Assembly (NCBI GenBank): GCA_016196885.1
Contig: JACPWU010000006.1
Coordinates: 1-28,676, forward strand
From: Chlamydiota bacterium
GTDB lineage: Bacteria > Auribacterota > JACPWU01
Length of the DNA stretch: 28,676 nt
Direction: 5' to 3'
Shown: positions 9,858 through 19,503 of the stretch, piece after piece
How positions within the stretch are numbered: position 1 is the stretch's first letter
Layout: every line of letters starts with the position of its first letter
Made by a program: the position numbers and the translations under genes
The notes under the pieces: model-generated
Told to the model about the DNA's origin: nothing
Seen by the model: only the letters and a program-made list of their open reading frames with translations
Databases searched by the model: none

Positions 9858-9920
9858 GCACATGTTCAAATGGGTTCGACATCTCAAAAGATGTTTGAAC
9901 AAAGTCCAGATTTAGAGTAT

Positions 9921-10088
9921 AGGCATATGCACTTGATTCCCCTTTGTAGTCGCCCGATTCATCGGGCAAACCCATGCAAGGGGCACAGCCCCATGAATGG
10001 GGCGACTACAACTTCTTGCCATGGCGCTTGCTATCTAAGGGGAATCAAGTGCATATGCCTATCTAAGGGGAATCAAGTGCATATGCCT
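9921..10088. mobile_element. Type-2 MITE-like element, copy B (intergenic) with a tandemly duplicated right end
   Basis: 9921-10060 differs by one base from copy A. The 28-bp right end ATCTAAGGGGAATCAAGTGCATATGCCT occurs twice in tandem (10033-10060 and 10061-10088). Confidence 0.85.
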
Positions 10089-10125
10089 AATTATTAATCC
10101 AAGCCGGGTCGGTGGAGTTCAGGAA

Positions 10126-10386
10126 ATGTCAGCAAGTTTGCCCAAAAACAATCCTTTGGATTCATCTGCAATAATGAGCACTTTGGAAAACAAGAGCAAA
10201 AGCGAGGACCGCAACTCTCAAAACTGGCAAGAAGCGATGATGGGATATGAGAGAGGTTACTCCGAAAGCACAAGCCGAACGTATGACATGCCCCTGAACA
10301 GTTACGATCCAACAGTGGGCGCATACCGCAATTCCGATCAGCCCACAGAAATTTTGAACACCGATGACAATGCGCAGCAGCGATAG
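10126..10386 (+). CDS. Hypothetical low-complexity protein (86 aa)
   Basis: An ORF with only a weak GGAG upstream. It is Ser/Asn/Asp-rich with no recognisable motif. Confidence 0.25.
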   Translation: MSASLPKNNPLDSSAIMSTLENKSKSEDRNSQNWQEAMMGYERGYSESTSRTYDMPLNSYDPTVGAYRNSDQPTEILNTDDNAQQR

Positions 10387-10498
10387 ATCTGTCTACGATC
10401 CTACGAAGCCTTGGCGTTACAGAACAAAGTTCTTGTCGGCCAAAAAAAATTTCTTAATAAATTCTGTTGTAGCATGTAAATTATGATACGATCACTCC

Positions 10499-10936
10499 AT
10501 GCTTAATCGCGTGATGGGGCGTCTTGATTTTATACGAATCCTCGTTCGGGGCTGTTTTCTTGCAATCTTGTCTATGACGGTTTATCCCATTTTGCGTTAT
10601 CTTACTCCTCCAAAATTCAGACTTCCCAGGGATGTTTCCGTGACGGCGGCCAAACTTTCTGAAGTTCCCCCAAACACTGCAAAAATATTTCCTTTTGGGT
10701 CTAAACCAGCCATTCTGATTCATACGGCATCAGATGAATATAAAGCCTTTTCCGCAGTTTGCACACATTTAAACTGTACGGTTCAATACGATCAAAAGGC
10801 GAGTGTCATCATGTGCGCCTGTCACAATGGGCGCTACGGTCTGGACGGCCGCGTGATTTCAGGCCCGCCCCCGAGGCCCTTGGAAGAATATAAAGTTGCT
10901 CTTAGGCGTGATGAAATTATCGTGTCAAAAGGATAG
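10499..10936 (+). CDS. Rieske [2Fe-2S] subunit of a cytochrome bc/b6f-type complex
   Basis: Has an N-terminal TM segment and the Rieske boxes CTHLNCTV and CACHNGRY, followed by GPPPRPL. Confidence 0.85.
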   Translation: MLNRVMGRLDFIRILVRGCFLAILSMTVYPILRYLTPPKFRLPRDVSVTAAKLSEVPPNTAKIFPFGSKPAILIHTASDEYKAFSAVCTHLNCTVQYDQKASVIMCACHNGRYGLDGRVISGPPPRPLEEYKVALRRDEIIVSKG

Positions 10937-10938
10937 GT

Positions 10939-11997
10939 ATGGCGTCCCTGGACTGGATTCGAAAACGCTTTCCGATCGAACCTTTTGAAAAACTTCTCCG
11001 AAAAAAAGAAGTCCCGGTTTACCGCTCGAATTTGTTCTACTATTTTGGAGGAATCAGCTTACTGCTTTTTGGGATCCAGGTCTTTTCCGGAATTTTGCTC
11101 CTCTTTTACTATTCTCCTCATGCAGGCGGGGCCTATGAATCGGTCCGCTTTATCATGAACAAGGTCCAATTCGGATGGCTCATTCGTTCTGTCCATGTCT
11201 GGTCGGCGCATCTCCTCATCGCTTCCATCTTCATCCATCTTTTCAGCACATTTTTTATGCGGGCTTATCGTTTCCCGAGGGAATTCACCTGGATGACAGG
11301 CGTTTTTCTTCTGATGCTCTGTTTGGGTTTTGGTTTTACAGGTTATCTCCTGCCTTGGAATGAATTGTCTTTTTTTGCCACGAAAGTCGGAACCGAAATC
11401 ATTGCAGGAGTCCCGGCGATTGGAAAATTTATTCAGACGGTTTTAAGGGGAGGCGAAGAGGTCGGGGATGCCACCCTGGGTCGTTTTTTTGCCCTTCATG
11501 TCGCGCTCTTCCCCATGATGGTAACGGGTTTGGTTCTGATCCATCTGATTTTCATCCAGTTTCAGGGAATGAGCACCCCTCCAGCGCTTGAAAATAAAAC
11601 CCTGAAAACGCTTCCCTTTTTTCCTAATTTTATTCTACGGGATTGCATCGTCTGGTCCTTGACCTTGGGGCTGGTCCTGGTTTTAGCCGTCTATTGCCCA
11701 CCCCCCTTGGGGGCAAAAGCGGATCCTTTCGCCCCAACCCCTCAGGGCATCCGACCCGAATGGTACTTCATGTGGATGTTTCAAACGCTGAAGATGCTGC
11801 CGGGGCATATTCTTGCTTTAGAAGGTGAGCAGGCCGCCTTGCTCGTGATGGGTATTTTAGGGGCGGGTCTTTTGTTTATCCCATGGCTGGATATCTGGAC
11901 CCGAAGAGGCAAAAGATATTCACCCCTGACTTATCTTGGCTGGGTCATATTAATTTACATGATTTTTACAACCATTCTGGGTTATTTACATTCATGA
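10939..11997 (+). CDS. Cytochrome b (fused b6 plus subunit IV-like, 352 aa)
   Basis: Shows YYFGGISLLLFGIQVFSGILLLFYY, the His-bearing helices SVHVWSAHLL and RFFALHVALFP...LIHL, and the C-terminal PEWYFMWMFQTLK motif. It starts 2 nt after the Rieske stop. Confidence 0.9.
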   Translation: MASLDWIRKRFPIEPFEKLLRKKEVPVYRSNLFYYFGGISLLLFGIQVFSGILLLFYYSPHAGGAYESVRFIMNKVQFGWLIRSVHVWSAHLLIASIFIHLFSTFFMRAYRFPREFTWMTGVFLLMLCLGFGFTGYLLPWNELSFFATKVGTEIIAGVPAIGKFIQTVLRGGEEVGDATLGRFFALHVALFPMMVTGLVLIHLIFIQFQGMSTPPALENKTLKTLPFFPNFILRDCIVWSLTLGLVLVLAVYCPPPLGAKADPFAPTPQGIRPEWYFMWMFQTLKMLPGHILALEGEQAALLVMGILGAGLLFIPWLDIWTRRGKRYSPLTYLGWVILIYMIFTTILGYLHS

Positions 11998-13250
11998 AAA
12001 TCACTTACGGGTACTTTTTAGCGTTATTCATTTTGCTTGCCCCTACAATGGTCTTGGCGGAAAATGGTGAGCAAAAAAAAAATTCTTGTGTAGAATGCCA
12101 TAAACTCATAGACGATGAAAATGGAGGAGTTGTCGGGCTCATGGCCCACGATGTTCACGCCCAGGTGGGTCTTTCCTGCGCAGATTGTCATGGGGGTGAT
12201 CCAAGCTCAGATGATATTGAAGTTGCAAAATCTCCGCAAAAAGGATTTATCGGCGCTCCCAAGAGAAACGAGATTCCTCAATTTTGTGCCCGTTGTCATG
12301 CTGATCCGAACTATATGCGCCCGTTCAATCCAAACCTCCCAACAGATCAATTTTCAAAATATCAGACCAGCGAGCATGGCAAACGCAATGCCCAGGGCGA
12401 CGATCATGTTGCAGTCTGCTCCAGCTGTCACGGGGCTCATGGAATTCGGCGGGTGAACGATCCTCTTTCTCCAATCTTTAAACGGAATGCCCCGCTGACC
12501 TGTAGCAAATGCCACTCTGATCCAGAATATATGAAGGCTTACGGGATTCCCACGGATCAGTTTGAGAAATATAAAAAAGGCGTCCATGGAATTCTTCTCC
12601 TGGAAAAAGGGAATTTGGGAGCACCCGCTTGTCATAGTTGCCATGGAAGTCATGAAGCTTCGCGACCTGTCGAAACATCGGTTGGAAATGTTTGCGCCCA
12701 ATGCCACACCCTGAACCGGGATCTGTTTGCCGCCAGCCCGCATAAAAAGGCACACGACCAAATGAAGGTGCCGGAATGTGCGGTCTGCCATGAGAACCAT
12801 TTTATCCAGAAAACCTCAGATGACATGCTGGGGACAGGCCCCGGTGCTATCTGCCTTAAATGCCACAAACAGGATTCCAATGGATATCACTCGGCAAAGG
12901 CCATGAGAGGCTTTATTGAAGACCTTAAGGGTCAAGTGTCTCAGGCTGAAACCGCAGTGGTTCAAGCGGAGCATATCGGGATGGACATGAGCGATTCCAG
13001 AGTAGAACTCGATCAGGCCGTGACGTTATTGACCAAGGCGCGCAGCTACGTGCATTCCTTTTCTCCCCCAAAAATCGAGTCCATTACCAAGGAGGGCAAG
13101 ACGGTCGCAGACCATGTGAAACAAGCAGCAAAAACAGCCCGGGCGCAGTGGGTAACACGCAGGAAAGGCCTCTGGGTGGCCATCTTATTTCTCATCCTTT
13201 TAGCTGCGGGCCTTTTTCTGGATATCCGCAGAAGAGAGAAAAAATCTTAA
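11994..13250 (+). CDS. Membrane-anchored multihaem cytochrome c (nine CxxCH motifs)
   Basis: The start ATG overlaps the cytochrome b stop (ATGA at 11994-11997), giving a signal-like MKITYGYFLALFILLAPTMVLA. CxxCH motifs are CVECH, CADCH, CARCH, CSSCH, CSKCH, CHSCH, CAQCH, CAVCH and CLKCH. A C-terminal TM segment GLWVAILFLILLAAGLFL is present. Confidence 0.85.
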   Translation: MKITYGYFLALFILLAPTMVLAENGEQKKNSCVECHKLIDDENGGVVGLMAHDVHAQVGLSCADCHGGDPSSDDIEVAKSPQKGFIGAPKRNEIPQFCARCHADPNYMRPFNPNLPTDQFSKYQTSEHGKRNAQGDDHVAVCSSCHGAHGIRRVNDPLSPIFKRNAPLTCSKCHSDPEYMKAYGIPTDQFEKYKKGVHGILLLEKGNLGAPACHSCHGSHEASRPVETSVGNVCAQCHTLNRDLFAASPHKKAHDQMKVPECAVCHENHFIQKTSDDMLGTGPGAICLKCHKQDSNGYHSAKAMRGFIEDLKGQVSQAETAVVQAEHIGMDMSDSRVELDQAVTLLTKARSYVHSFSPPKIESITKEGKTVADHVKQAAKTARAQWVTRRKGLWVAILFLILLAAGLFLDIRRREKKS

Positions 13251-13318
13251 GGAGATTCTGTCCGATACAATGTAGGAGAGTCGAAGAAAGAATCTTTAAG
13301 CCAAAGGCTTACAGGTGA

Positions 13319-13459
13319 ATCGGCTTGGTCTCCTCCGTTCCGTCGGAGACTGTGTCCTTCCGCCACAAAGCAAGGCGGACAAGCTGCCTTCGCAAGAGAT
13401 TTTATTTTTGTCCGCCCCCCAAAAAATCAACTCCTTTCAAGGTAGTTTTGCTCAGGCTA
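13319..13459. repeat. Type-3 structured repeat, left copy (inverted partner of 15376-15516)
   Basis: 141 bp with 3 mismatches (counted by eye) to the reverse complement of 15376-15516. Contains stems GTCTCC/GGAGAC, TCCGCC/GGCGGA, and the mutually exclusive GGCGGACAA/TTGTCCGCC. Confidence 0.85.
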
Positions 13460-13502
13460 TTATAGAGATGGTTTCATTTGTCAGACCATTCATACATAGA
13501 AT

Positions 13503-13685
13503 ATGCAAATCAATCGAGTTAAAAGAGGAAAGTTTTCAGAAATTAAACTTGAAGACGGACGAAAAATATTCTTATCTGTCTTTCCTGATCGTATTACTGC
13601 GTCATTAATGTTTCTGTTTATTCCTACTAAGAAAATATGGGAATTCATATTTCCTTTCTATATTAGAACAGCAATTGATGGATAG
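13503..13685 (+). CDS. Hypothetical small protein (60 aa)
   Basis: ORF only. It overlaps the next small ORF by 8 nt (ATGGATAG). The two may be one frameshifted gene. Confidence 0.2.
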   Translation: MQINRVKRGKFSEIKLEDGRKIFLSVFPDRITASLMFLFIPTKKIWEFIFPFYIRTAIDG

Positions 13686-13797
13686 TTCGGCAAGAGCAAG
13701 GAATTTTCTAGTTTTTGATTTAGGAAAACAAATTTATAGAATTGACGAGAAGGCGTTCAATGACTATTTCAAAAAAGTAAAGTTTCTCGATGAGTAA
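13678..13797 (+). CDS. Hypothetical small protein (39 aa), not in the ORF track
   Basis: My own translation gives MDSSARARNFLVFDLGKQIYRIDEKAFNDYFKKVKFLDE. It ends 11 nt before the start of gene 13809. Confidence 0.2.
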   Translation: MDSSARARNFLVFDLGKQIYRIDEKAFNDYFKKVKFLDE

Positions 13798-13808
13798 TAT
13801 TTTTTTAT

Positions 13809-14354
13809 ATGAATCATAAATTATGGTTTTATATTTTTGTTGTATTTTTCAATGTTATTTTTTGTATGACATTTTCATCTTATGAAACCCATGCACAGGT
13901 GAAGAAAGAAATGTCAGCAAAGGACTTACTCAAATCCCATGCTTTGGAGGTTAATGATTTGCTTACGGCTTATATTGAACTGCACGATGATGCCTTAAAA
14001 GAATCCGGAACCTTTGAAAGTCTTTTCAGGCACGTAGACTTCGAAAGCCTACACAAGAGGTCTATAGATATCCACTCACGGTTAAGTACAAAACAGAAAG
14101 AACTGGAAGATTTCTATAAAGAATTTTATTCTCAAGCAGATCCAGATTGCCGATTGTATTATGACGCGTTACATATCTTTGTAGAAAGATTAACAAGAAC
14201 CACAGCTCTTCTAGAACAAAGGCAACTGTTTTTATATAAAAAAGCAAAGGGTGAAGGAGGCACTTTCTCTGATTACATGAAGATCGAGAAAGAATATCAG
14301 AACTCCGTCAATGATTATATGGAAGCGGGTAATAAACTGAACCAACTAAATTAA
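13809..14354 (+). CDS. Hypothetical secreted or membrane-anchored helical protein (181 aa)
   Basis: Has the N-terminal hydrophobic segment LWFYIFVVFFNVIFCMTFSSYETHA. The rest is charged and helical-looking. No family recognised. Confidence 0.55.
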   Translation: MNHKLWFYIFVVFFNVIFCMTFSSYETHAQVKKEMSAKDLLKSHALEVNDLLTAYIELHDDALKESGTFESLFRHVDFESLHKRSIDIHSRLSTKQKELEDFYKEFYSQADPDCRLYYDALHIFVERLTRTTALLEQRQLFLYKKAKGEGGTFSDYMKIEKEYQNSVNDYMEAGNKLNQLN

Positions 14355-14402
14355 TCTTATCTTTTGAACCTCAATGGTAATTAGCCCATTTCTATGAACT
14401 CC

Positions 14403-15266
14403 CTAACTATTAGAGAGAACCGCGAAGAAACTTTCCAAGTCGTAGTATTTTTTCGAAGGAAATAACTGCCCCCAAGCGTTTTTCATAAAATGCTTCTCAT
14501 CAGAAATAATAGCGTCTACACCAATCAAATAATTAAGATACTGTAAGTCTTGAAAATAGTTTTTATCTATATGCTTCTTATTATCAACCGTCATTGCATA
14601 CCAAGCTGCAAAAAGAAGTCCTTCAATAAATTTGGTAAAGTAAGGACACCGTTTATCTCTATATTTTAACCAATAACTTTTACGTTTATCCTTCGTATCT
14701 ACAGAAATTGCTGCTTTTTCAATGTGAACTAACGCCATGGATTCCAAATTTTTCCCTAGAAACGCCTGAAAATCATTGTCTTTTCTTTCCAAATCACTAT
14801 TCTTATATTTTTTAAGAATTTCCTCATTCATTTCTACATATATCTTTCGATTATTTTCTTTTATCTCTTCTCGCTGCCTAATCTGAGCAACTAATTCGTC
14901 TTTGCTGTTCACTGCTACACTTCCACTAATAGCTGCAGATAACCTAGCTTTAATTAATGAAACTTTGTTTTGCTTACAAAAAAGATATTCGCTTAATAAT
15001 TTACCATCTAGTTCCATTTCAAATATGTCAGCAGTATCTTGAAATAACTTCTGCCATGGCAAGTCGACAAGGAACCTTATCGATTCAATTCCAGCCGTAT
15101 TCACCTTTTCTTGCGTAAGAAAATGTAATTTCTCTTCTGCAAGAACAGGAATCATGTAAAATGTCAGCTTCTTCTTTTGACAAAGCTCCAATAGACTAGA
15201 CTCTCTAAGACGTTTCAAATTCGCTGGTATTAAAATATTTGAGTCTAAAACAAACTTAAGGCTCAT
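14403..15266 (-). CDS. Hypothetical protein with a split PIN-like signature (function uncertain)
   Basis: The N-terminus KFVLDSNILI resembles PIN strand 1. The C-terminus QDLQYLNYLIGVDAIISDEKHF resembles the distal PIN acidic motifs. A charged insert of about 190 aa separates them. AAGGAG lies 7 nt upstream of the ATG. Confidence 0.5.
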   Translation of the reverse strand: MSLKFVLDSNILIPANLKRLRESSLLELCQKKKLTFYMIPVLAEEKLHFLTQEKVNTAGIESIRFLVDLPWQKLFQDTADIFEMELDGKLLSEYLFCKQNKVSLIKARLSAAISGSVAVNSKDELVAQIRQREEIKENNRKIYVEMNEEILKKYKNSDLERKDNDFQAFLGKNLESMALVHIEKAAISVDTKDKRKSYWLKYRDKRCPYFTKFIEGLLFAAWYAMTVDNKKHIDKNYFQDLQYLNYLIGVDAIISDEKHFMKNAWGQLFPSKKYYDLESFFAVLSNS

Positions 15267-15341
15267 AAAGTCTCCTTGTCTAGGAGTTTATCATAAGCCT
15301 TTAACTCAAACACTTCAGAACCTTTTACAACCCGCAACTGT

Positions 15342-15516
15342 AATTCGGCTTGCTCCACGAAGCGGGGAGTGGCCGAGCCTGAGCAAAACTACCTTAAAAG
15401 GAGTTTATTTTTTGGGGGGCGGACAAAAATAAAATCTCTTGCGAAGGCAGCTTGTCCGCCTTGCTTTGTGGCGGAAGGACACAGTCTCCGACGGAACGGA
15501 GGAGGCCAAGCCGATT
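15342..15516. repeat. Type-3 structured repeat, right copy (longer, with its own ~10-bp terminal inverted repeats)
   Basis: 15376-15516 matches the reverse complement of 13319-13459. The extra 34 bp (15342-15375) begins AATTCGGCTTG, which is the inverted partner of the other end CCAAGCCGATT. Confidence 0.85.
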
Positions 15517-15585
15517 AAAGATCCTTTTTTCTACATTTGTGGATCATATTGGGTAAAATAATAGATAGAGTTCGAATTGATTTTG

Positions 15586-15794
15586 AATCCGGAGCCATTT
15601 TATAAGTATCGAACTGGGAAATTTGACCCCCCACCGTCAAATTTCCCTTTTTTGTTTCGGGGAACTCCTTATTTATCCCAGCGGTCGCCCCCACCCGACA
15701 GCAGGATAGAGGAAAAGAAACATCTACTGCCGCACTCGGCCCTTTATCTGCCATAGACAGCGGGCCTCCATTGTTGGGTATTTGTGTCTCAGAG
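15586..15794. repeat. Type-4 repeat, copy D1 (diverged, with ~75-bp extra block)
   Basis: Shares three blocks with 17026-17141: AATCCGGAGCCA..TTTTA, a 22-nt identical block CCAGCGGTCGCCCCCACCCGAC (15678-15699), and a 19-nt identical block GGGTATTTGTGTCTCAGAG (15776-15794). It lies immediately 3' of the stop of gene 15807-16451. Confidence 0.7.
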
Positions 15795-15806
15795 GCTTTT
15801 TTAAGA

Positions 15807-16451
15807 TCAGTACTTAGTAATGAAAAGAAAAAAAGTGCTAATAAATGCAATTCCAGAGACAAACAGTCCTATGGTCAACCAATAGAATAATGTTAGCAGG
15901 CGGGTTTTAACTCCAATAGGTCTCTTAAGACCTTCAAGATAATCTTCGTCATAGAATCTCAGGCTATCTCGAAAATTACATAAAAATTTTGTCTTAATTT
16001 TTTCGTCAACTTTTTTGTTTCCTGTTGTTGCTATTTCTTCAATCTGGTTTCTTATATTGTGTCCTTCCCAAAGATTTTTTAGAATTTCCACTCCTAATTT
16101 CATTGAGACATACCTAATTTCAAGAAAAATCTTAAAGACTAACGCAGAAAATACGGTGAGAACTAAAAGCTTGGAGCCTAGGACCAAAATTTCTACATAA
16201 GCTAAGTCGTTTGAAAGTTTGTTAAAAGTAAAGAATAGAGCTCCTGTCGCTAAACCAGTGAGCCAATTAATGAAGTTATCTCGACCTGAGAGTTTGGTTT
16301 GCAAAAACTCGTTGAGTTGTTCGTGATATTCCTTATTGTGTGGATTGTCGCACTTGCGTTTGATCTCTTCGGCTTTTTTCTCAAGTTCAGCTATATCTAT
16401 CTTCTCGTCAGACCGTTTTAATTTGTTGATTAGCCACTTAAACACGCACAT
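15807..16451 (-). CDS. Hypothetical integral membrane protein (214 aa)
   Basis: Has a charged N-terminus and hydrophobic segments FINWLTGLATGALFFTF, LVLGSKLLVLTVFSALVFKIFL and LLTLFYWLTIGLFVSGIAFISTFFLFI. No family recognised. Confidence 0.55.
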   Translation of the reverse strand: MCVFKWLINKLKRSDEKIDIAELEKKAEEIKRKCDNPHNKEYHEQLNEFLQTKLSGRDNFINWLTGLATGALFFTFNKLSNDLAYVEILVLGSKLLVLTVFSALVFKIFLEIRYVSMKLGVEILKNLWEGHNIRNQIEEIATTGNKKVDEKIKTKFLCNFRDSLRFYDEDYLEGLKRPIGVKTRLLTLFYWLTIGLFVSGIAFISTFFLFITKY

Positions 16452-16470
16452 TTCTTATCCTTACGATAAT

Positions 16471-16818
16471 TTATTGTTGCTTCGTATCATTATGATATTT
16501 TTCTTTCAACTTGTTGAGTTTATCGTCTAACATTTTAATGGTGTTTTCCCAATGAGAATCTATTATTTTTAGTTTTTCATCGAAAAAAATCTTAAAAATT
16601 TTGAAAATATTTAGAAATGAGAGCAGGATAACTATGTAATAGAATTTGTATTCATTTTTATCCTTCGGAAATTGGAAATAATGAACCTTAACTTCTTTTG
16701 GTAAATCTGTATCGTCCCTTTTGAATTCTAATCTATGGAAAAAAGAATTTACATCTGCATGTGAGCCGAATAAAATAAAGGGGTCAAATAAAGAATAAAA
16801 ATAATAAAGGTAAAGGGG
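16471..16818 (-). pseudogene. Start-less 115-codon open frame (possible 5'-decayed gene) upstream of the membrane protein
   Basis: My own translation gives ...FHRLEFKRDDTDLPKEVKVHYFQFPKDKNEYKFYYIVILLSFLNIFKIFKIFFDEKLKIIDSHWENTIKMLDDKLNKLKEKYHNDTKQQ*. The only in-frame ATG is 20 codons from the end (16533). The stop lies 19 nt before ATG 16451. Confidence 0.3.
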
Positions 16819-16968
16819 TCAAGTCTTTTCTTGACTACATATAAGAGTGACTCGGCACCTTTCATTCCACCCTCCCATCACCCCAAAAGAACGGCTTCAC
16901 GGAGGGAGTAGAGTCTTTGAATTTTCGGACAGACGGCCTCCCTATTCGTCCTGCCCTCGAGGCAGAAC

Positions 16969-17008
16969 AAAAAAATAAGCCAGGTCACGGAGAAGTGCCT
17001 TGGCTTAT
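16969..17008 (-). terminator. Rho-independent terminator downstream of the DUF4238 operon
   Basis: The minus strand reads ATAAGCCAAGG-CACTTCTCCGTGA-CCTGGCTTAT followed by TTTTTTT, a stem of about 10 bp with one bulge. It lies about 160 nt after the stop at 17167. Confidence 0.55.
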
Positions 17009-17025
17009 TTTGGCTCCGGATTCAA

Positions 17026-17141
17026 AATCCGGAGCCAATTTTAATAAGGTGTCGCCGTTGGCGACTTTATCTTTTTGGCCCAACCCGTCATTTTTTCCAG
17101 CGGTCGCCCCCACCCGACCGCTGGGTATTTGTGTCTCAGAG
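17026..17141. repeat. Type-4 repeat, copy D2 (compact, intact hairpins)
   Basis: Contains a perfect 10-bp stem CCAGCGGTCG/CGACCGCTGG (17097-17124), GTCGCC-GTT-GGCGAC, and GGCTCCGGA-TTCAAAA-TCCGGAGCC just upstream. It lies in the 3' untranslated region of gene 17167-18126. Confidence 0.7.
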
Positions 17142-17166
17142 ACTTTTTCGGAAGCTAATACATAAA

Positions 17167-18126
17167 CTAACCGACTTTAATTTTTATTTGGCTATCCTTA
17201 TACTTTGTCGCTAGTGATCTCAACCCTTCAGATTTAAGAGATGAAAATATAAATCGCCAAGATGCACTTGCAGTTCGTCTATTAAATTCTTTGACGAGCT
17301 GGTTATCAGCCTTGTAGTAGCTTGCATCGAGTTTCCATGAACCAAAGGCGCAAATGTCCTTGGAAAGGGGTAAAGTGACTTCAATATTTTTGTTCCCTAA
17401 GCCATATCCGTAGAAAGAAACCCGTTTATAACTGGGATCAATATAATTAAACGGATTATCCCCTGTTATAAATTTATTTTCATCTGATGCTTCAAAAAAG
17501 CCCCAGTGCATTTGTTTAAAAATTCTTGCAAATTTTTTTAAAAGAGATAAGGAAGTTGTAATACCTACCTGAGGATTCATTCTCATCTCAAAGTTCTTGT
17601 CAAAGTGCAAGACAGTCTTTCGATATTCCTCAAAAGGCATGCCAATAGTCTTTCCCGTTTTTTCTTCAATAGCCTTTACCGACCTTTCAAATGCTTTTTC
17701 ATCTGCTGCTAACATTTGTAATATCTTTTTATTAATTCCTGAAAACGCTTCCCCAACGTTGTCTCGAAAATTAGGAGCCCTAATCTGCATCAACGCGACA
17801 AAAAAGCTAAAAGTTATCATTTCGGAGTCTGTTAAAGATTGTTTATTCAAAATCTTCTTTATGACGGGTAAAGTTTCATTTTCCATATCCGTTATCAAGT
17901 TCTCTAGTGTCTCAGAATCTTTCTGTCCGTTTTCATTTATAAACGTGAAATAATCATTTTCATACGCTATGGCTTCAGGTTTTTCCTCAAACACTTCACT
18001 ATTATTTTTGTTATAAACCCACAAACACTCACTTGGAGAAACAAATCTTTTCAAGTAAGCGACTGGAATATAGTGATGCTTCTTCTTTGGCTTAGACTTT
18101 TTGATGTTAGGTGCGGCTTTTGTCAT
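17167..18126 (-). CDS. DUF4238 domain protein
   Basis: The N-terminal HHYIPVAYLKRF matches the DUF4238 signature (HY-P--YL--F), and the later WGFFEASDENKFITGDNPF block also fits. Length is 319 aa. The start lies 4 nt after the stop of the HTH gene. Confidence 0.75.
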   Translation of the reverse strand: MTKAAPNIKKSKPKKKHHYIPVAYLKRFVSPSECLWVYNKNNSEVFEEKPEAIAYENDYFTFINENGQKDSETLENLITDMENETLPVIKKILNKQSLTDSEMITFSFFVALMQIRAPNFRDNVGEAFSGINKKILQMLAADEKAFERSVKAIEEKTGKTIGMPFEEYRKTVLHFDKNFEMRMNPQVGITTSLSLLKKFARIFKQMHWGFFEASDENKFITGDNPFNYIDPSYKRVSFYGYGLGNKNIEVTLPLSKDICAFGSWKLDASYYKADNQLVKEFNRRTASASWRFIFSSLKSEGLRSLATKYKDSQIKIKVG

Positions 18127-18130
18127 GATT

Positions 18131-18307
18131 TCATCTCACAAGTTTATCAATAGAAACTTCCAAAGCATCGGCTAACTTTATGACAGTTCCGATTCTCGGA
18201 TTCTTTATTCCGTTCCGTTCAATCTTTATAAGAGTGTTGTAAAAAATACTTGCTTCTCGATCGAATTTCTCTTGTGAACAGGTTTCACGGGTTTCCTTTG
18301 CTCTCAT
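18131..18307 (-). CDS. XRE-family helix-turn-helix protein (58 aa), not in the ORF track
   Basis: My own codon-by-codon translation gives MRAKETRETCSQEKFDREASIFYNTLIKIERNGIKNPRIGTVIKLADALEVSIDKLVR. The IERNG..NP...T.IKLADAL.VSIDKL pattern is typical of HTH_XRE. It is packed 4 nt from both neighbouring genes. Confidence 0.6.
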   Translation of the reverse strand: MRAKETRETCSQEKFDREASIFYNTLIKIERNGIKNPRIGTVIKLADALEVSIDKLVR

Positions 18308-18311
18308 GAAT

Positions 18312-18752
18312 TTATTTCCAACCCAGTATGATTTTTTTGTCTCGCATGGATATCAATCTGGAAGAAGCAACAAGTTGGTCAATTTGATCCATGATTTCTA
18401 AAGTTAATGTGCCTACAAAATGTACAAGATTTTGCCGATATCTCTCACTCAATTCAGTACGAGGAAAAGACCAAACATTTCTACAATCAATGATTGTCTC
18501 CAGAGGAAAAAACGATAATTCACGGGGCTGGATTCGGACAAAATCCTTAACTTCAGGATGCTGATTATAAAATTCAATTTTAGAAGTGGTCAAAAATAGG
18601 AGCGTTTTGGAATCACTGGGATGTTTGTTAAGAACAATGATATATTTACTTTTTGTTTCACCCCTCTTGAAATGAAGATTCGTTAAAAGAACAACGCCTC
18701 TCTTGAACTCTTTTTCAAAAACACTGTCATGAATGATCGGAGGTATGTCCAT
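18312..18752 (-). CDS. Putative toxin partner of the DUF4065 antitoxin (MazF/PemK-like pattern, uncertain)
   Basis: 146 aa. FKRGVVLLTNLHFKRGETKSKYIIVLN...LLFLTTSK resembles the MazF/PemK N-terminal barrel pattern (G-vv-v-f..GhE..K-RP-vVls...v-P-TS). It starts 11 nt after the DUF4065 gene stop. Confidence 0.45.
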   Translation of the reverse strand: MDIPPIIHDSVFEKEFKRGVVLLTNLHFKRGETKSKYIIVLNKHPSDSKTLLFLTTSKIEFYNQHPEVKDFVRIQPRELSFFPLETIIDCRNVWSFPRTELSERYRQNLVHFVGTLTLEIMDQIDQLVASSRLISMRDKKIILGWK

Positions 18753-18763
18753 TGACGATAGGA

Positions 18764-19375
18764 TCAGGTTGGAGAAGCTAACAACGAAACTAAATCTACA
18801 TGTTCCTGAAGAATTTCAAGATATTCTATAGCTTGGGAATTTGCATCCTTATCATCCTCAAAAAATAAGCGGTAATCAATTTCTCCATTTTTTTCAGATT
18901 TATTCCAAGGGGCCTCTTTGTGAGTTGAGGTAATCAATTTATTCCAGGACAAATGTCCATATTTTTGAATGGTATTGTGTAAAGATTCTTGTTCGGATTC
19001 AGAGAGGCAGTCTAGATCAGGTGCTTTTTTAGGTTCGAAAGTCGGATGTTTACTTTGAGTGTTTACTTTGAGATATCTTTTAAAAAGTTCTAAATTGCTC
19101 TGCTGAATATTTGGGATTTTATAAGGAGAAATCGCTTCATTGATAATATCCAAAGCTTTTGATGGAACAGGGCCATAGTCTAAGTGAAAATAGACATCTC
19201 CCAAGATGGGACGCCCATATCTAACCAAATGGTACTTATCTGCATAATAAAGAAGTTTTACAGCTTTAAGCTTATCTAGATCCCTTATTTTTGAAGCTAA
19301 GAGAGTTAAACAAGCAATAAACTTCTCATTGTCAAATTTAAATCTAATAGGGGGCTGAGAGGCTGAAATATTCAT
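18764..19375 (-). CDS. DUF4065 (Panacea/SocA-like) antitoxin-type protein
   Basis: LDKLKAVKLLYYADKYHLVRYGRPILGDVYFHLDYGPVPSKALDIINEAI matches the DUF4065 core (KLLYyAd...g.pi.g..y.a...GPV). Length is 203 aa. A perfect TATAAT (plus-strand ATTATA at 19390-19395) lies upstream. Confidence 0.75.
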   Translation of the reverse strand: MNISASQPPIRFKFDNEKFIACLTLLASKIRDLDKLKAVKLLYYADKYHLVRYGRPILGDVYFHLDYGPVPSKALDIINEAISPYKIPNIQQSNLELFKRYLKVNTQSKHPTFEPKKAPDLDCLSESEQESLHNTIQKYGHLSWNKLITSTHKEAPWNKSEKNGEIDYRLFFEDDKDANSQAIEYLEILQEHVDLVSLLASPT

Positions 19376-19426
19376 AATTTATGGAAGGAATTATAGCATC
19401 TATATCCCGATTTTAACACGAGAAAC

Positions 19427-19503
19427 TGGCTCCCCGGGCAGGACTCGAACCTGCGACATACTGGTTAACAGCCAGTCGCTTCTACCAGCTGAGCTACCGG
19501 GGA
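19427..19503 (-). tRNA. tRNA-Asn (anticodon GTT), CCA encoded
   Basis: The reverse complement TCCCCGGTAGCTCAGCTGGTAGAAGCGACTGGCTGTTAACCAGTATGTCGCAGGTTCGAGTCCTGCCCGGGGAGCCA folds as a cloverleaf: acceptor TCCCCGG/CCGGGGA, anticodon stem ACTGG/CCAGT with loop CTGTTAA, and T arm GCAGG-TTCGAGT-CCTGC. It closely resembles E. coli tRNA-Asn. Confidence 0.9.

Follow-up and report, generated by a model that had tools for sequence, protein, structure and literature searches.

The closest described systems are site-specific invertible segments (Hin/Gin/Cin, fimS, and the invertons of Bacteroides), MITE-bounded composite units of the TIME-COMP/IMU type, prokaryotic MITEs, and tRNA-adjacent defense or toxin–antitoxin islands. 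The sites used by invertases are usually 10–40 nt long. RecA-dependent recombination has a minimum of about 25–30 nt in E. coli, and Tn3-family terminal repeats take the form of a GGGG-type 38-nt inverted repeat. Prokaryotic MITEs, among them Correia/NEMIS, ERIC, RUP, and MITEAba12, span 50–500 nt, and Correia elements provide a reported case of MITE-linked inversion (PMC10969869). TIME-COMPs are 1.2–11 kb in size with a direct repeat flanking their outermost ends, and IMU-bounded units occur that lack flanking repeats (PMC13367494).

The DNA analyzed here, termed the window, is a stretch of 28,676 nt from a Chlamydiota-labelled bacterium, and it contains a two-gene module bracketed by inverted copies of one repeat, termed type-3. 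With a probability of about one half, the two arms are copies of a single low-copy MITE-like element that were inserted separately, one of which was later truncated. The features of the locus are:

13318..13458, minus strand: left repeat copy, type-3, MITE-like, inverted relative to the right copy
13330..13427, no strand: 98-nt identical core shared by the arms, partner 15407–15504
13459..15341, no strand: interior segment, 1883 nt, 33% G+C
13503..13797, plus strand: small overlapping ORFs of 60 aa (13503–13685) and 39 aa (13678–13797), no family match
13809..14354, plus strand: gene for a 181-aa orphan protein
14403..15266, minus strand: gene for a 287-aa PIN-like protein
15342..15516, plus strand: right repeat copy, complete type-3 unit, 175 nt
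15517..19426, no strand: rest of the low-G+C island
19427..19503, minus strand: tRNA-Asn(GTT), right edge of the island, toward which its 3′ end points

The repeat search places the inverted arms at 13318–13458 and 15376–15516, with a spacing of 1917 nt. Each is 141 nt long, and 138 of the 141 positions match in reverse complement (98%). An earlier note on this DNA had given the same size and the same number of mismatches, but its left arm began at 13319, one base too late. The mismatches fall at 13329/15505, 13428/15406, and 13438/15396, and identity runs uninterrupted through the 98-nt core at 13330–13427. Self-comparison of the arms by blastn gives an E-value of 2e-64, so their similarity is not due to chance.

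The right copy is the longer one, as the earlier note had recognized. It begins at 15342, reaches 34 nt beyond the extent of the left copy, and has short terminal inverted repeats. The complete unit measures ~173–175 nt, is non-coding, and ends in AATTCGGCTTG / CCAAGCCGATT, with terminal inverted repeats of 8–11 nt. With the boundary base included, the ends of the right copy read A(T)TCGGCTTG / CCAAGCCGAT, and the element proper occupies ~15344–15515. The termini by which a cognate IS would be recognized are ATCGGCTTGG. This copy (53% G+C) is bordered by TAA (15341–15343) and TAA (15516–15518), or alternatively by TA/TA, as read from the one complete copy. A TAA/TAA border of this kind indicates that the copy inserted by itself. 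Missing from the left copy are the inner 34 nt, and with them the inner terminal repeat; that 34-nt end occurs a single time in the window. Outside the left copy the flank is TGA/GA where TAA/TA would be expected, and the truncation has removed the duplication on its inner side. The outermost ends of both copies are intact and identical (AATCGGCTTGG).

Folding of the repeat as RNA, a check that had been proposed earlier, gives a strong fold on both strands of the 175-nt unit, better than that of shuffled sequences (z about −3.2). The ends of the unit are paired, and the pairing extends in both MFE folds. The proposed mutually exclusive stems, TCCGCC...GGCGGA versus GGCGGACAA...TTGTCCGCC, are readable in the sequence, and each MFE fold uses one of them. 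A non-coding unit of 175 nt with short terminal inverted repeats and a strong fold lies within the size range of 50–500 nt for MITEs, which bears out its description as MITE-like. Six-frame translation of the repeat yields 0 matches in 5.8 billion proteins, so no predicted protein derives from it. Spurious ORFs arise from repeats at this locus, such as 13315–13608, and repeats also break assemblies, both of which call for caution in annotation.

The repeat had also been suggested to act as an orientation-dependent terminator. The T-run that follows the long stem amounts to no more than TTGCTTTGT, the stem loop is 25 nt, and a terminator scan does not call the arm hairpin as an intrinsic terminator. 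With the scan silent and the T-run weak, an intrinsic terminator in the arm was rejected. Moreover, recombination within the arms leaves the arms in place, and a terminator therefore cannot change on flipping.

The interior holds what had been described: two small overlapping ORFs, a 181-aa gene on the plus strand, and a 287-aa gene on the minus strand. The small ORFs overlap by 8 nt, and their coding status is putative. The G+C content is 33% in the interior versus 45% in the flanks, and the drop coincides exactly with the point where the left copy is truncated. Given the 53% of the repeat itself, the repeat looks host-native and the interior looks acquired. The 181-aa protein is hydrophobic at its N-terminus, and the part after it is modelled as an all-helical bundle (single-sequence AF2, pLDDT 84); it has no family match and no homologue in the searches made.

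The 287-aa protein belongs to a real, uncharacterized family of 149 representative clusters with a full length of about 280–300 aa. In its AF2 model (pLDDT 91.6), beta-alpha units at the two termini are separated by a helical insert; the predicted PIN-like alpha/beta core comprises residues 1–95 and 236–287, with the insert at 99–226. Among 50 homologues, Glu85, Asp240, and Asp251 are invariant, and Asp8 and Glu45 are at least 90% conserved, a pattern that probably represents the conserved acidic active-site residues of a PIN domain. PIN domains (VapC, SMG6/EST1A) account for 9 of the top 12 PDB matches of the model, and PIN or PhoH proteins make up the viral matches at ranks 2, 3, and 7, all of these matches having E-values of at least 0.45. 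In Pfam, PIN_3 (E 0.09) and PIN_5 (E 0.14) both miss the cut-offs, as does the PIN_12 match of a single homologue (E 0.0036), and removal of the helical insert leaves the Pfam PIN matches short of threshold. No match to the protein was found in plasmid or phage collections. Its predicted structure suggests a nuclease-like protein of PIN-like fold.

The interior opens a 6-kb island of toxin–antitoxin/defense type that ends at the tRNA-Asn. From 15517 to 19426, the order is a 212/214-aa membrane protein gene set between type-4 direct repeats, then DUF4238, HTH_3, an ORF of 146 aa, and an antitoxin-like gene of SocA/Panacea type, of which DUF4238 corresponds to a PADLOC defense-candidate model. 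The G+C content of the island is 33–36% vs 45%, and the island adjoins the 3′ end of the tRNA. An att-type repeat of that 3′ end longer than 10 nt was not found, and the annotated ORFs include no integrase, so the island is at best decayed. Low-G+C DNA extends 4 kb past the right copy, which means that the repeat pair does not delimit the foreign block.

The extent of the island and the borders of the arms bear on whether the pair moved as a unit. In a MITE-bounded composite transposon like those of the TIME-COMP/IMU type, the outward intact ends would be used by a transposase supplied in trans, the 2.2-kb unit would carry the PIN-like gene and its neighbor, and loss of an inner end would stabilize it. 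The arms are indeed inverted copies of one unit with intact, identical outermost ends and one inner end destroyed, the interior is compositionally foreign, and no solo copies occur among the sequences searched. A size of 2.2 kb also fits the 1.2–11 kb of TIME-COMPs, and IMU-bounded units likewise lack flanking repeats (PMC13367494). Against this, the outer flanks of the pair read ...CAGGTG(A) (...GGTGA) on the left and (T)AAAGAT (TAAAG...) on the right, with no direct repeat of at least 3 nt at any offset. The TAA/TAA of the right copy spans its inner end, which composite insertion would produce only by chance; the low-G+C DNA runs 4 kb beyond the right copy, and neither a second location nor a transposase is known. 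Given the missing flanking repeat and the right copy's own duplication, the suggestion of composite movement is not upheld, and a composite origin is unlikely.

The type-3 family appears to be rare. Searches with blastn and nhmmer find 0 copies beyond this locus in 16 kb from a different contig of this MAG and 0 in 54 kb of two related MAGs, these 70 kb having been reached via type-1/type-2 peptides, and there are 0 copies in 677 kb of distant metagenome loci. The repeat has no match in a plasmid collection, and none in Rfam at gathering or E-value thresholds. The 24-nt core has no exact match in GTDB representative genomes, JGI metagenomes, or IMG/VR; a control type-1 26-mer has no match in the GTDB representatives either, so the source genome is absent from that set and the core search there is uninformative on copy number. 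Cytochrome b was tried as a synteny probe in JGI metagenomes, where the best match is 57% identical; this route was rejected because the relatives are too distant, and those loci contain no repeat.

Because the family is so rare, two independent insertions 1.9 kb apart are unlikely, barring local hopping or duplication of an arm. In a local inverted duplication, one arm would be a copy of the other made through template switching or in the repair of a break, with no transposition involved. That just two copies are known, 1.9 kb apart, that one is incomplete and ends at an arbitrary internal point, and that identity continues one base (A) beyond the presumed element end all agree with such an event. 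On the other hand, the outer arm boundary coincides with the element terminus within one base, which a random duplication would not respect, and no flank longer than 1 nt is duplicated. Copies truncated at an end also occur in other families of this genome, and local duplication is accordingly rather improbable.

The window has at least three other families of short repeats with terminal inverted repeats. Copies of type-1 are always TA-flanked, and one is truncated at one end, from which truncated MITE copies appear usual in this genome. The 98% identity of the type-3 arms is inside the 93–99% range between copies of the other families. Separately, another repeat family of the window inserts in frame into many genes and is a more promising lead than the repeat pair.

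The earlier note had further raised the possibility that the segment flips. The arms are long enough to recombine, as was claimed, and the 98-nt core is the sole plausible substrate for homologous inversion. The segment would be a functional, phase-variable cassette if it flipped at a useful rate, so that the PIN-like and 181-aa genes changed places between read-through out of the respiratory cytochrome operon and read-through out of the island. A perfect core of 98 nt in arms of 141 nt is well above the RecA-dependent minimum. The two genes converge, and either orientation puts a 5′ end beside an outside promoter; for the same reason, inversion would merely swap which outside promoter reads into which gene. 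MITE-linked inversion is known for Correia elements (PMC10969869). Countering this, Pfam annotation of every sizeable ORF in the 28.7-kb window finds no recombinase or transposase domain, in agreement with the earlier statement that neither an invertase nor a transposase is present. The 141-nt arms far exceed the usual 10–40 nt of site-specific inversion sites, one of them is a damaged transposable unit and not a conserved site, and the window is collinear across the segment, in the same orientation, with the second NCBI contig (28,503 nt). A dedicated flip switch is not supported by these observations, and a functional cassette is very unlikely. Slightly less probable still is a co-opted, recombinase-free flip-flop, in which inversion across the 98-nt core would exchange the genes for a PIN-like defense nuclease and a secreted helical protein between the two sources of read-through, while inward-facing arm hairpins would insulate the module.

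Logan contigs add evidence on the assembly, though they cannot tell the orientations apart, because the k = 31 graph is identical for either one. Contig L002 contains both inner junctions and L004 the left outer junction, each 100% identical to the window. The Logan contigs collapse at the 98-nt core. They run through the arms with no branch besides those of arm versus arm, which counts against the reading of separate insertions. The pair might be suspected of being a mis-join or a chimeric or collapsed repeat of a short-read metagenome bin, since the source is a MAG and the two NCBI contig versions differ by indels right next to other repeat copies. However, the arms differ at three positions, the junctions recur on independent Logan contigs, and the breaks between Logan contigs are exactly the ones that a true inverted repeat should cause at k = 31. 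An assembly artefact is therefore extremely improbable.

Under the preferred reading of separate insertions, the right copy would have inserted alone at a TAA site in the low-G+C island of accessory genes. Its partner on the left, which lies directly after the cytochrome operon, may later have been cut short by 34 nt at its inner end, at the very point where the G+C content drops. Local hopping perhaps contributed to the two nearby insertions, and occasional inversion of the module through host homologous recombination between the 98-nt cores could occur, presumably at a low rate. The order of these events and the past mobility of the unit are likewise inferred. Since the arms would have arrived separately, their bracketing of the 1.9-kb two-gene module, at the edge of the toxin–antitoxin/defense island next to tRNA-Asn, would be a by-product and not a built switch. 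Homologous inversion and composite movement are possible but unsupported. Overall, the locus has the appearance of routine mobile-element debris within a gene island.

The readings differ in what they would mean. If there were only two insertions of a rare MITE, the locus is routine genome texture. If the unit were mobile or invertible, MITE-bounded movement of cargo would be extended from resistance plasmids to defense genes in an environmental uncultured lineage. A true flip-flop would amount to population-level phase variation of a defense gene in an uncultured Chlamydiota-labelled bacterium.

Like site-specific invertible segments, the locus is a segment bounded by inverted repeats, and flipping would alter transcription from outside. 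It differs in the length of its arms (141 nt compared with about 10–40 nt), in having no serine or tyrosine recombinase nearby and no promoter-only or split-gene design, and in the single orientation observed. With TIME-COMP/IMU units it shares inverted copies of one MITE on either side of ~2 kb of passenger genes, the lack of a transposase, and intact outermost ends. Unlike these units, its ends are AATCGGCTTGG and not the 38-nt inverted repeats of the Tn3 family, it has no flanking direct repeat of 5–6 nt, its cargo is a PIN-like gene and an orphan rather than a resistance gene, and it is chromosomal with no second insertion site known. The surroundings resemble tRNA-adjacent defense or toxin–antitoxin islands in forming a 6-kb low-G+C block at the 3′ end of a tRNA-Asn with SocA/Panacea, DUF4238, HTH, and nuclease-like genes, but an integrase is lacking, as is a direct repeat of the 3′ end of the tRNA. 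Compared with prokaryotic MITEs, the type-3 unit is unusual in its two known copies, both at this locus, in having no known cognate IS and a target duplication at one copy, and in its lack of similarity to Rfam families and to plasmid or virus collections. It is nevertheless like them in its 175-nt length, terminal inverted repeats, stable fold, absence of a transposase, intergenic position, and short A/T-rich TAA duplication, and in sharing its genome with other such families.

The type-3 repeat, a MITE-like unit (MITE, a small non-autonomous transposable unit), occurs twice in opposite directions. At roughly even odds (about 0.5), the pair represents two separate insertions of a low-copy element at the edge of a decayed accessory island linked to tRNA-Asn, with one copy presumably truncated afterwards. 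The features concerned are:

13318–13458, left type-3 copy, truncated at its inner end
13809–14354 (+), gene for a 181-aa protein
14403–15266 (−), gene for a 287-aa protein
15342–15516, right type-3 copy, complete
15663–15801 and 17082–17148, type-4 repeats
19427–19503 (−), tRNA-Asn

A repeat search confirms the inverted repeat proposed in an earlier note, placing its arms at 13318–13458 and 15376–15516 (141 nt, 98% complementary, spacing 1917 nt; E 2e-64 for arm against arm by self-blastn), and its three mismatches (13329/15505, 13428/15406, and 13438/15396), between which lies a perfect core of 98 nt (13330–13427). The right copy is indeed longer, by 34 nt on the inner side to 15342, and this inner 34-mer occurs once in the window. 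The complete unit measures 175 nt, with ends AATTCGGCTTG and CCAAGCCGATT, and either strand folds more strongly than shuffled controls (z about −3.2). The competing stems already noticed are visible in the sequence, and each MFE fold uses one. The terminator proposed in the repeat is weak: its 9-bp stem closes a 25-nt loop, TTGCTTTGT comes next, and a consensus scan made no call. Two ORFs, 13315–13608 (+, 97 aa) and 15515–15862 (−, 115 aa), cross or abut the copies; they are almost certainly spurious, and gene calls from NCBI and on Logan contigs (a k=31-graph assembly of public reads) include neither.

Flanking direct repeats were checked at every boundary offset, for the single copy and for the pair. 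The right copy is flanked by TAA at 15341–15343 and 15516–15518 (alternatively TA/TA, shifted by one base), which, judged from sequence, would mark the unit as inserted on its own. For the pair taken together, no offset gives a flanking repeat of at least 3 nt (left ...GGTGA, right TAAAG...). Nor are the limits of the foreign block set by the arms, since low-G+C DNA extends 4 kb past the right copy. These findings appear to favor separate insertions, and the earlier suggestion that the segment could move as a composite unit gets no support from them. A MITE-bounded composite is unlikely. Such composites have been inferred from 5–6-nt repeats around their outermost ends, with the exception of IMU-bounded units, which lack flanking repeats yet were experimentally mobilized (PMC13367494). 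The type-3 pair, having no outer direct repeat, resembles the IMU-bounded units in that respect.

The setting of the pair is an island of distinct composition. G+C falls from 45% to 33–36% across 13459–19426; the drop begins precisely where the left arm is cut short on its inner side, and the block stops at tRNA-Asn, whose 3′ end faces it. Besides the segment between the arms (13459–15341), the block carries a SocA/Panacea antitoxin-like gene, a 146-aa ORF, an HTH_3 gene, a DUF4238 gene matching a PADLOC defence-candidate model, and a gene for a 212/214-aa membrane protein. No integrase was found in the block, nor a repeat of the tRNA-Asn end. Type-4 copies, with a common palindrome CCAGCGGTCGCCCCCACCCGAC, flank the membrane protein gene in direct orientation, a placement by which small repeats separate each island module. 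Logan contigs end at 15724, 17066/17088, and 19454, where no k=31 repeat inside the window explains them; the breaks at type 4 (15724, 17066/17088) may thus point to further copies elsewhere.

Searches for exact copies of the 24-nt type-3 core found none in GTDB representative genomes, JGI metagenomes, or IMG/VR. A control type-1 26-mer likewise has no match in the GTDB representatives, and the source genome is therefore absent from that set. No predicted proteins derived from type 3 were found. Peptides of the type-1 and type-2 repeats, used as probes, led to 16 kb from a different contig of the same MAG and, in two related MAGs, to a further 54 kb; type-1 copies occur in this sequence, type-3 copies do not. 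Logan contigs from SRR12113387 span 10060–13427 and 13398–15436, and within the arms they end exactly where the two arms by themselves would break a k=31 graph. Type 3 is, tentatively, a low-copy family. With few copies, the pairing is less likely to be pure coincidence; low copy number is compatible with local hopping, local duplication, or a composite origin; a local inverted duplication is decidedly unlikely.

The window is nearly identical to JACOUD010000008.1 of MAG GCA_016178005.1 (NCBI label ‘Chlamydiae bacterium’), and the two are collinear across the segment. The sole differences are a 139-nt indel (10057–10195) directly adjoining a type-2 copy and a 6-nt indel (24569–24574) directly adjoining a type-1 copy, reflecting either repeat-associated polymorphism or assembly differences; at 10060–10195 a Logan contig agrees with the window version. 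That the type-3 pair is an assembly artefact is highly improbable.

RecA-dependent recombination in E. coli requires a minimum homology of about 25–30 nt. The 98-nt perfect core is ample for it, so rare flips of the segment are plausible. Because the 181-aa and 287-aa genes are convergent, either orientation sets a 5′ end beside an outside promoter, and a flip would move read-through from the cytochrome operon from the former gene to the latter. A functional invertible cassette is nevertheless very unlikely, given the collinear second contig and the window ORFs, which, as first noted, encode no recombinase or transposase domain. Nor would the repeat act as an orientation-dependent terminator, since the arms keep their own orientation on flipping and add no switch. 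The Logan k=31 graph is the same for both orientations and hence uninformative on flipping.

The cytochrome operon (Rieske, cytochrome b, and multihaem cytochrome c; 10499–13250) lies in a MAG labelled Chlamydiae by NCBI, and the nearest JGI metagenome sequences to its cytochrome b are only 57% identical. Either the lineage's taxonomic label or its metabolism may merit attention.

Within the segment, the 287-aa protein, at first described as split, does not come from a split gene: an exhaustive search yields 149 representative clusters, mostly full length (270–300 aa), with E85, D240, D251, and K272 invariant and D8 and E45 nearly so. Its AlphaFold2 model, built with the family alignment (pLDDT 91.6), has beta-alpha units at 1–95 and 236–287 and a helical insert at 99–226. 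PIN domains (VapC, SMG6/EST1A) make up 9 of the 12 top Foldseek matches in the PDB, and PIN or PhoH proteins rank 2, 3, and 7 in a viral library, all non-significant (E at least 0.45); Pfam PIN models score below threshold, also with the insert taken out. For these reasons we infer a PIN-like nuclease with a helical insert rather than an established family member. The closest homologue (39% identity) adjoins Abi_C and SieB genes, which fits a defence context. On its contig (L092), short hairpin repeats AAAATAGGGAnACATCCTATTTT, unrelated in sequence to type 3, lie on either side of the homologue gene (2477–2502, 2710–2733, 2779–2801, and 3749–3772). The 181-aa protein begins with a hydrophobic N-terminus, and its predicted model is all-helical; no family match or homologue was found. 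The small overlapping ORF pair is present as described (60 and 39 aa, 8-nt overlap), and neither ORF matches anything.

At least three further small repeat families occur in the window, with copies 93–99% identical within a family. Apart from type 4, these include:

1945–2129, 6593–6777, and 24430–24568, type 1, with 25-nt TIRs
4296–4446 and 9912–10062, plus fragments, type 2

One type-1 copy has lost part of one end, resembling the left type-3 arm. The type-2 repeat at 4296–4446 is also translated, within a Fic gene (3345–4691; residues 317–371 of its protein, P0150). Of the complete type-1 copies, two in the window and five at other loci were examined, and every one is 178–179 nt and TA-flanked; 178 nt plus 2 gives 180 nt, or 60 codons. 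Type 1 lies inside annotated genes, always in the same frame, as a ~61-aa peptide LTRISHHISAASADS...KSDEKCGL (79–100% identical). In-gene copies are at 1945–2129 in the Fic gene 1072–2181 (−) and, on other contigs, at L008 11504–11681, L009 10577–10754, L010 754–931, and L011 10601–10778. The hosts are six unrelated proteins in three ‘Chlamydiae bacterium’ MAGs: Fic, a hypothetical protein, a GT4-like protein, a cobalamin-binding protein, a nucleotidyltransferase, and MiaA. These in-frame insertions are probably more interesting than the type-3 pair, and inserting in frame within genes is the behavior reported for Rickettsia palindromic elements (PMC10969869).
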